669 bases of DNA from Escherichia coli (GCF_003334255.1 NZ_QOWU01000199.1); one strand, 5' to 3'; shown: positions 1 through 669, counted from the stretch's first letter. Notes: a model not told the origin generated them from the sequence alone. Numbers and translations are program-made.

Positions 1-63
1 GACATCAGTACCCGTGATGAAGGCGGGGGCGGAAAGGTCGTGGTTATCGGGCGGCAGGGGTAA
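1..63 (+). CDS. I: Tail assembly protein, lambda gpI-like; 3' end only (5'-partial, upstream of window)
   Basis: Frame +1 reads DISTRDEGGGGKVVVIGRQG then TAA at 61..63. The Gly-rich stretch followed by VVVIGR matches my recollection of the lambda gpI C-terminus, and the position immediately upstream of a J homolog fits lambda gene order (K-I-J). Only 20 codons are visible, so the call leans on synteny plus a short motif. Confidence 0.7.
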   Translation, partial: DISTRDEGGGGKVVVIGRQG

Positions 64-109
64 AAAGAATAAAAAAATCCCGCAGTGATCGCGGACAGGA
101 ACTGCGGGA
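64..109 (-). terminator. Rho-independent terminator-like hairpin oriented for the minus strand
   Basis: Perfect inverted repeat CCCGCAGT (79..86) / ACTGCGGG (101..108), extendable by a T:A pair at 78/109, with a 14-nt loop (87..100). On the minus strand the stem is followed directly by ATTTTTTTATTCTTTTT (complement of 78..64). On the plus strand no U-tract follows the stem, so it is not a plus-strand terminator. Confidence 0.5.
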
Positions 110-168
110 GAGTTACGAAGATTAAGTGTAAGGAATTATTCTTATGTCACGACAAAAAAAATTAACGC
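64..168 (-). ncRNA. Candidate ~100-nt small RNA in the I–J spacer, antisense to the tail operon (hypothetical)
   Basis: Bounded by the candidate minus-strand promoter and the minus-strand terminator. The minus strand has no ORF longer than a few codons across 110..305. The region is AT-rich (about one-third GC by hand count over 111..240) against GC-rich flanking coding sequence. I do not recognise it as a named sRNA. Confidence 0.2.
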
Positions 169-174
169 AGCGAA

Positions 175-202
175 ATTATCAGCGCCACAGTCAGTTTGTG
201 AA
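175..202 (-). promoter_or_regulatory. Candidate sigma70 promoter on the minus strand (-35 TTCACA, 16-nt spacer, -10 GATAAT)
   Basis: Minus-strand sequence reads TTCACA (202..197), then a 16-nt spacer, then GATAAT (180..175); each hexamer matches consensus at 5 of 6 positions. AT-rich context. The predicted start near 167..169 would give a transcript ending at the terminator at 64..109. Motif match only, no expression data. Confidence 0.2.
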
Positions 203-292
203 AATGTGAAGATATTCAGAATTTTTATTCAGTCATGATACAGGCATCCTCCGGGGTGCCTGTTGTTTTTGTGAGTGAACAATTATCACGGT

Positions 293-299
293 AAGAGGT
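293..299 (+). promoter_or_regulatory. Shine-Dalgarno / ribosome binding site for the J-like CDS
   Basis: AAGAGGT at 293..299 lies 6 nt upstream of the ATG at 306..308. The in-between ATG at 301..303 is followed directly by TAA and is not the start. Confidence 0.6.
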
Positions 300-305
300 G
301 ATGTA

Positions 306-669
306 ATGGGCAAAGGCGGCGGCAGGGCGCACACACCGCGCGAGGCGAAGGATAATCTCAAATCCACGCAGATGATGAGTGTGATTGATGCGATTGGTGA
401 GGGACCGATAGAAGGTCCGGTGAAGGGACTGCAGAGTATTCTGGTGAACAAAACCCCGCTGACGGACACGGACGGTAATCCCGTGATACACGGTGTGACC
501 GCCGTCTGGCGTGCCGGGGAGCAGGAGCAGACACCACCGGAAGGCTTTGAGTCCTCCGGAGCTGAAACTGTACTGGGTGTGGAAGTGACGAAGGCAAAAC
601 CGGTGACACGCACCATTACGTCAGCGAACATTGACCGCCTGCGGGTGACCTTCGGGGTGCAGTCACTGG
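306..669 (+). CDS. J: Tail tip / host specificity protein, lambda gpJ-like; N-terminal 121 codons (3'-partial, continues beyond window)
   Basis: ATG at 306 with SD upstream; open frame +3 to the window end. Translation MGKGGGRAHTPREAKDNLKSTQMMSVIDAIGEGPIEGPVKGLQSILVNKTPLTDTDGNPVIHGVTAVWRAGEQEQTPPEGFESSGAETVLGVEVTKAKPVTRTITSANIDRLRVTFGVQSL is colinear with the lambda J N-terminus as I recall it (MGKGSSKGHTPREAKDNLKSTQLLSVIDAISEGPIEGPVDGL…RAGEQEQTPPEGFESSG…TRTITSANIDRLRFTFGVQ), with long identical blocks. Codon usage is GC-rich and enterobacterial in character. Confidence 0.9.
   Translation, partial: MGKGGGRAHTPREAKDNLKSTQMMSVIDAIGEGPIEGPVKGLQSILVNKTPLTDTDGNPVIHGVTAVWRAGEQEQTPPEGFESSGAETVLGVEVTKAKPVTRTITSANIDRLRVTFGVQSL

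Follow-up and report, generated by a model that had tools for sequence, protein, structure and literature searches.

A divergent allele at the PasB / EcOnc22-24 small RNA locus between tail genes I and J of lambdoid prophages of Escherichia coli

Introduction

Does the short spacer that separates two tail genes of a lambdoid prophage encode a small RNA on the strand opposite to these genes, and if so, to which family would this RNA belong and on what would it act? The question was raised by a stretch of 669 nucleotides from Escherichia coli (GCF_003334255.1, NZ_QOWU01000199.1), hereafter the window, for which a prediction made from the sequence alone had proposed an orphan small RNA (sRNA) transcribed antisense between tail genes I and J, from a sigma70-like promoter to an intrinsic terminator. 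The structure of this unit, its relatives in phage and bacterial genomes, its correspondence with published sRNAs and its possible function are described below.

Genomic context of the spacer

The window matches lambdoid, mostly Shiga-toxin-converting, phages and prophages of E. coli. BLAST returned 147 phage records, with a top identity of 97.3%, and 1,890 of the 5,426 complete E. coli genomes carry matches, distributed over 6,154 places with up to 11 per genome. Besides the unit under study, three features could be delimited:

1..63, plus strand: 3' end of the tail assembly gene I, with a TAA stop codon at 61-63
240..270, plus strand: hairpin ACAGGCAUCC-UCCG-GGGUGCCUGU followed by UUGUUUUUG, a T-run (fold z = -3.3), which is not part of the sRNA
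306..669, plus strand: 5' part of the tail tip / host specificity gene J, with ATG at 306 (translation MGKGGGRAHTPREAKDNLKST...), open to the end of the window

Gene I aligns with the equivalent end of the tail assembly protein coding sequence of strain E2348/69 and matches proteins annotated as 'tail tip assembly protein I' by BLAST, and the product of J matches annotated gpJ. The stop codon of I and the start codon of J thus bound an I-J spacer at 64-305. With these two codons and a U-tract at 71-77 of the minus strand, the antisense position between the two tail genes stands as originally described.

A conserved promoter region on the minus strand

The promoter proposed for the minus strand was recovered by a promoter scan with both of its hexamers, which together match the sigma70 consensus at 10 of 12 positions:

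203..231, minus strand: A/T-rich conserved block upstream of the -35
197..202, minus strand: -35 hexamer TTCACA, 16 nt from the -10
175..180, minus strand: -10 hexamer GATAAT

Promoter-like sites sharing this -10 numbered two in the window against 0.6 +/- 0.8 in shuffled sequences, and the exact pair of hexamers was unique in the window and absent from all 200 shuffles. As judged from sequence comparison, it is conservation, rather than the scan, that marks the promoter as more than a chance occurrence. Related loci were gathered from IMG/VR by means of two anchors, the promoter block and the terminator, and the set obtained with the terminator, in which the promoter played no part in the selection, comprised 47 distinct sequences. 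In this set TTCACA was kept in 46 sequences and the 16-nt spacing likewise in 46, and the -10 hexamer read TATAAT in 42, GATAAT in 2, AATAAT in 2 and GATAAA in 1. The hexamers are conserved no better than their neighbours, so that the comparison establishes a conserved promoter region within which they are not singled out. Since TATAAT is found in 42 of the 47 homologues, GATAAT represents a slightly weaker variant, and the rare G at its first position probably weakens the promoter of the window.

Among the related loci, the best conserved part of the spacer extends from 161 to 231. It includes the A/T-rich block at 203..231, which may be an UP-element-like sequence or the site of a regulator. 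The RNA body (~95-160) and the J-proximal part (232-305) are mosaic, and among the IMG/VR loci no part of the spacer varies more than the body.

Terminator and anatomy of the predicted RNA

Downstream of the promoter, the minus strand displays the following elements:

71..168, minus strand: predicted primary sRNA transcript of ~98 nt
71..153, minus strand: stretch equivalent to the published 83-nt PasB of E2348/69
117..135, minus strand: single-stranded core with UUCCUU (135..130) and UUAAUCUUC (125..117), candidate seed
79..108, minus strand: intrinsic terminator hairpin, CCCGCAGU (108..101), a 14-nt loop and ACUGCGGG (86..79)
71..77, minus strand: U7 tract, expected Hfq-binding 3' end

The terminator was called by the scan at 95..79, in agreement with the original prediction, and RNAfold favoured the longer stem listed above, which pairs 108..101 with 86..79 and is followed by an A and the seven U. 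The hairpin cannot terminate gene I, because its A-run comes first when the plus strand is read. The scan also returned three other terminator-like sites elsewhere in the window. Transcription would start near G168, 7 nt after the -10, and would end at the U-tract, which gives ~98 nt for a unit announced as about 100 nt. The absence of coding potential was likewise upheld: there is no minus-strand open reading frame (ORF) of at least 20 amino acids between promoter and terminator, and by eye the frames found there consist of two or three codons. The predicted RNA folds with -18.7 kcal/mol (z = -2.2), and its centroid structure leaves the 5' two-thirds unpaired, the terminator being the sole stable helix. 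The poly-U tail has a known role in Hfq binding (Otaka 2011, Ishikawa 2012, as cited in PMC4104026).

The related loci yielded 150 promoter-to-terminator units, which reduce to 42 distinct sequences and, together with two Sakai-type sequences, to 38 distinct predicted RNAs of 91-102 nt. All of these are built on a common plan: GCGUUA and a U-run at the 5' end, a variable middle, AUCUU, the hairpin and six to eight U. The AUCUU motif, the only 5-mer outside the terminator common to the 38 RNAs, usually reads AAUCUUC and is preceded by UCCUU or a close variant, and columns 117-122 and 130-134 show little or no variation. The seed of PasB has been located just upstream of the terminator (Zhu et al., bioRxiv 10.64898/2026.05.13.724894). 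In the terminator, the stem CCCGCA/UGCGGG is kept in 38 of 38 RNAs and the loop differs by insertions and deletions. The comparison across homologous spacers that had been proposed as a check gave no covariation support for this stem, because it is invariant. The anatomy of the unit, the homology of its locus, promoter and terminator, and their conservation can be read directly from the window and its relatives.

The locus is that of PasB of EPEC

The unit had been described as an orphan, a qualification that had to be abandoned, as a named family, PasB / EcOnc22-24, exists at this locus and is absent from Rfam. PasB of the EPEC O127:H6 strain E2348/69 is an 83-nt RNA encoded on the minus strand (1466343->1466261) of prophage PP6 (Pearl Mizrahi et al. 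2021, PMC8550237, Table S6). It lies between E2348C_1436 and E2348C_1437, opposite to the tail operon, and was validated by Northern blot with the probe AATCCCGCAGTGATCGCGGAGCT (PMC8550237). In the RefSeq record these two genes are I (tail assembly protein) and J (gpJ). The probe matches the window at 76-95, in 20 of its 23 nt, and an alignment of the two spacers, in which window positions 161-305 and the 3' arm of the terminator are almost identical to E2348/69, carries PasB over to 153->71. The published 5' end thus maps 15 nt inside the start at ~168 deduced from the promoter. This difference between 83 and 98 nt may reflect processing after the 5' U-run, an underestimate based on coverage, or a misplaced start.

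The window RNA and PasB share the I-J spacer, the strand and a 3' end adjoining the stop codon of I, a near-identical promoter block (161-231), identical terminator 3' arms and U-tracts, the UCCUU and AUCUUC motifs, the overall length and the layout. They differ in the body (~95-160), whose sequence is unlike that of PasB, in the terminator loop (14 nt in the window, 11 nt in PasB) and in the -10 hexamer, which is GATAAT in the window and TATAAT in PasB. A blastn search of PasB against the window returned nothing at word size 28, and at word size 11 only the last 25 nt. A published survey of these RNAs used blastn with word size 28 and a query coverage above 75% (Zhu, Shabalina and Storz 2026, bioRxiv 10.64898/2026.05.13.724894), which is a search threshold and not a biological definition. 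The window gives no match at this word size and is therefore classed as an allele of the PasB locus that has diverged, not as PasB in the narrow sense. The same survey reports only PasB variants of a few nucleotides, PasB and PasB-2 differing at position 27 (bioRxiv 10.64898/2026.05.13.724894), and from this, together with the word size and the coverage applied, it appears to have counted only the type represented by E2348/69. The entry for PasB in Table S6 of PMC8550237 has no remark on an EHEC homologue, such as is made there for PasA and PasD.

PasB ranks 15th by number of RIL-seq interactions, and its stability depends on Hfq (PMC8550237, main text), with log2 fold changes of -6.8 and -2.4 in Table S2, which were taken as those of the hfq mutant versus the wild type. 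PasB is abundant (baseMean 482 and 1,082), in contrast to the flanking genes I and J, which are almost unexpressed (4.8 and 15), from which it follows that PasB is expressed from the lysogen independently of the tail genes. Under the activating condition, PasB was recovered as the 3' partner in RIL-seq chimeras with bfpB, bfpI, ftsZ, galE, ler, perB and rplX, and the ftsZ fragment spans the 5' UTR and the start codon (PMC8550237).

Correspondence with EcOnc22-24 of EHEC Sakai

A second set of published RNAs was found to point to the same spacer. EcOnc22, EcOnc23 and EcOnc24 of EHEC Sakai, which are mutually homologous, are carried by prophages Sp15, Sp14 and Sp11 (Tree et al. 2014, PMC4104026, Table S2). 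They are ~85 nt long on Northern blots, bound by Hfq and destabilised without hfq (PMC4104026). Their published positions adjoin three identical 240-nt I-J spacers in NC_002695.2, on the strand opposite to the tail genes. Without correction, the peaks fall 22-84 nt from the start of J, where no transcription unit is visible on that strand. Table S2 refers to an older version of the genome, and the shift between versions was calibrated here, not taken from the paper. The positions of AsxR and AgvB, found in the current version with Rfam models, indicated that coordinates at 1.27 and 1.94 Mb are displaced by +135 to +146. At 2.93 Mb the calibration is indirect: the shifted EcOnc15 (= StxS) falls on an RNA ending at an intrinsic terminator, and unshifted it would fall on the stx1 promoter region. 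At 2.9 Mb, the homologous pair EcOnc08/21 and EcOnc42 gave an ambiguous calibration, since there is no one-to-one assignment of peaks that lie on a single long RNA. Once shifted, the peaks of EcOnc22-24 cover the RNA body of the spacer, approximately at window 140..80.

The Sakai locus shares with the window the spacer, the strand, the terminator stem, the U-tract, the AAUCUUC motif and the -10 region, which reads AATAAT in Sakai. It has a third body sequence, and its -35 region is unlike that of the window. It is very probable, although not proven, that EcOnc22-24 represent the same locus as the window RNA and PasB. PasB and EcOnc22-24 are probably one locus under two names, a link that is not stated in the source papers on either. 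In a 2021 review the targets of EcOnc22, with EcOnc23 and EcOnc24 as synonyms, are given as unknown (PMC7873438). The transcription of homologous loci as PasB and EcOnc22-24 supports the original reading of an ORF-less promoter-to-terminator unit as a prophage sRNA, which by homology would be expressed in the lysogen.

As a side observation of more general use, mapping the EcOnc coordinates of Table S2 onto NC_002695.2 without correction misplaces the sRNAs, with an offset of about +135 to +146 nt.

Other RNA families considered

A search of both strands of the window against Rfam 15, down to E = 10, gave nothing above the gathering threshold, on the plus strand or on the minus strand. PasB and EcOnc22-24 have no entry there. 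The best-placed weak match, to MicX of Vibrio cholerae (RF01808) at 71-272 of the minus strand, reached 21 bits for a threshold of 75 (E = 0.026), and is explained by the two terminator-like hairpins at its ends and not by homology. Matches to archaeal snoRNAs inside J were dismissed as sub-threshold noise.

AgvB, AsxR and HnrS resemble the window RNA in being short Hfq-binding cargo of lambdoid EHEC prophages, often in several copies, and the AgvB/AsxR group, like the present family, combines a conserved part with a variable one. They differ in location: AgvB and AsxR form a convergent sRNA pair downstream of PR', HnrS precedes the packaging and head genes, and the window RNA is found between I and J. 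AgvB and AsxR (RF02702, RF02703) gave no match to the window even at E <= 10, and the same models do detect both RNAs in Sakai. The 66-nt HnrS (EcOnc10-12), also multicopy and prophage-borne, was rejected because of its position, as given in the supplementary methods. PasA, PasC and PasD are tied to the Q / lysis region and not to tail genes. EcOnc54 of Sakai prophage Sp6 was set aside as well; it maps to a moron between tail genes L and K that also carries a transcriptional regulator and an antirepressor. In Sp6 the I-J region itself is replaced, gene I being truncated and followed by the effector-like espX7 in place of J.

DicF, from the cryptic prophage Qin, is like PasB a short, prophage-encoded and Hfq-dependent RNA acting on host mRNAs. 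The ftsZ mRNA is the classical target of DicF, and its 5' region is found in the RIL-seq chimeras of PasB; the two are compared for mode of action and not as a family. DicF has no sequence relation to the window, is processed from the dicBF operon transcript instead of having a promoter-terminator unit of its own, and occupies another position in its prophage.

Alleles and prevalence

The loci examined carry at least three alleles of the RNA body, distinguished by their sequences: W (window), E (E2348/69) and S (Sakai). Recombinants among the three bodies occur. W and E have no 28-mer in common in the body, and variants v2 and v1 of the E allele correspond to the published PasB and PasB-2. The S allele differs from the window in its -35 region, as noted above. 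Among the 5,426 complete E. coli genomes, these sequences were distributed as follows:

W body: 1,253 genomes, 1,749 places
E body: 887 genomes, 907 places
S body: 542 genomes, 1,246 places
W body behind sodC, without the promoter: 541 genomes, 717 places
promoter and W body, at least 95% identical to the window: about 770 genomes

The W body reaches up to seven copies in a single genome, and E. coli 2013C-3033 (NZ_CP027323.1) is 100% identical to the W allele and its promoter over 137 nt. No published name for the W allele, the commonest of the three, was found in the literature, where it seems to be uncharacterised.

A wider scan, with each species represented by one genome, returned nine matches: six were unrelated terminators, one was E. 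albertii, the only species other than E. coli in which the element was found, and two were probable contaminant contigs. These two, labelled as a Collinsella metagenome-assembled genome (W allele) and as Parendozoicomonas haliclonae (460 nt, S allele), contain I-J spacers of the E. coli type, and most likely result from contamination or mis-binning rather than from a true occurrence in these organisms.

Proposed function and alternative explanations

We consider that the minus strand at 71-168 probably specifies a small regulatory RNA which is non-coding, depends on Hfq and belongs to the PasB / EcOnc22-24 family. Judging from its sequence, the W allele is most likely an Hfq-dependent sRNA that acts in trans and is expressed in the lysogen. 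Transcript size, Hfq dependence and RNA partners have been established in the literature for sister alleles only, and are extended to W by analogy. The classical layout of an Hfq-dependent sRNA, combined with the RIL-seq chimeras of PasB, makes trans post-transcriptional regulation in the lysogen the most likely function. As a moron of lambdoid prophages, the gene would occupy the I-J spacer and would be transcribed from its own sigma-70 promoter against the silent tail operon, up to the terminator abutting the stop codon of I. In the lysogen the RNA would be bound by Hfq through its terminator hairpin and U-tail, and its open, A/U-rich body, with UUCCUU and AAUCUUC, would pair with host or virulence mRNAs in trans. 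The conserved stretch formed by UCCUU and AAUCUUC is the likely contact surface and would contain the seed. As the W body differs from both characterised alleles, its set of targets is probably different from theirs. Pairing predictions, computed as unconstrained duplexes and as duplexes within 18-nt windows, were no better for the W, E and S alleles with the chimera regions of ftsZ, ler and perB than for shuffled sRNAs, and gave no convincing pairing of the W allele with ftsZ.

A more elaborate reading, which we regard as unlikely, would assign two jobs to the RNA. In the lysogen it would be a trans-acting Hfq sRNA whose W, E and S bodies are exchanged as cassettes between a fixed promoter and a fixed terminator, each prophage thereby having its own host targets, and after induction its pairing with the late transcript of I-J would lead to cleavage or to a slower polymerase, and would thereby set the level of J relative to the upstream tail genes. 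An action chiefly in cis, with regulation in trans as a secondary effect, is highly unlikely: J expression would be tuned by pairing of the antisense RNA with the late I-J transcript or by a collision arising from its transcription, or, as a variant, the tail operon of the lysogen would be insulated by the hairpins. Along ~98 nt between I and J, the late polycistronic mRNA is perfectly complementary to the RNA, and the same spacer holds the terminator-like plus-strand hairpin at 240-270, located between the sRNA promoter and J, in which the pair 247-256 is C-G in 32, U-A in 17 and U.G in 15 of 64 loci and is never broken; as U.G pairs can form only in plus-strand RNA, this hairpin seems to be selected on that strand. 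The sRNA, however, overlaps neither the ribosome-binding site of J, ~140 nt away, nor the coding region of I, and PasB was found in Hfq chimeras with the unlinked ler, perB, ftsZ, bfpB and galE. The variability of the body would fit changing targets in trans, but says little on pure pairing in cis, since an antisense RNA remains complementary whatever its sequence.

The window could also hold a silent or decaying copy, that is, a PasB homologue without useful expression. This is conceivable because the -10 is weakened, with a G at its first position that is found in only 2 of the 47 distinct homologues, and because the promoter-less W bodies behind sodC in 541 genomes indicate that a body can persist without its promoter. 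We nevertheless hold it to be improbable, given that GATAAT and TTCACA at 16 nt still match the consensus at 10 of 12 positions, that the terminator, the U-tract and the conserved motifs are intact, and that the W body and promoter are kept with at least 95% identity in about 770 genomes. A chance association of promoter-like hexamers with a hairpin that serves gene I or the structure of the genome, and no RNA gene at all, is extremely improbable: consensus scans do yield false positives, and three other terminator-like sites are present in the window, but the hairpin on the plus strand is preceded and not followed by an A/T run, the hexamers and their spacing are conserved across dozens of mosaic spacers, and homologous RNAs were detected on Northern blots in two pathotypes. 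That the plus strand encodes a small protein, or a type I toxin for which the minus-strand RNA would be the antisense regulator, can practically be dismissed. The candidate is a 21-codon ORF at 144-209 (MSRQKKLTQRNYQRHSQFVKM), whose ATG is preceded at 9 nt by an AAGGA motif and which overlaps the 5' end of the RNA and the promoter. Its ATG is replaced by ATA in the commonest W variant, the E allele cannot be aligned in this region, and the peptide, being basic and hydrophilic, does not resemble type I toxins; this ORF is probably not a gene.

The finding of an sRNA at this position is in itself ordinary, the family having already been detected in EHEC (2014) and in EPEC (2021). The family is, however, larger and more varied than the published survey implies, with three bodies set between one promoter and one terminator, and, in view of the PasB chimeras with ler, perB, bfp and ftsZ, differences between alleles could alter the input of the prophage to the control of virulence and cell division.

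Other features of the spacer

A possible plus-strand promoter overlaps the -35 of the sRNA at 177-205, with TTATCA (177-182), a 17-nt spacing and an extended -10, TGTGAAAAT (197-205). It lies below the threshold of the scan, is not conserved in the Sakai allele and has no RIL-seq or CRAC entries. Together with the hairpin at 240-270 it would yield a divergent RNA of ~60 nt. A Q-modified polymerase would read through this hairpin.

In the commonest class of spacers (95 of 164 IMG/VR loci), the J-proximal part corresponding to window 232-305 is replaced by a module ~100 nt longer. This module includes a strong hairpin, AAAACCCCGGTATC TGCT GATACCGGGGTTT, which is terminator-like in both directions. 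In this class the mosaic joint is located directly after the conserved block holding the sRNA promoter.

Finally, the I-J spacer may also house sodC, coding for a Cu/Zn superoxide dismutase, on the same strand as the sRNA, as in the E. coli O157:H7 FRIK944 locus (886-1600), and the corresponding junction is found in 541 genomes. The stop codon of sodC is followed by a hairpin of its own and then by a W-like sRNA body and terminator. Homology with the window begins at the predicted transcription start, the promoter being replaced, and the sRNA body at these loci may form a 3' trailer of sodC.
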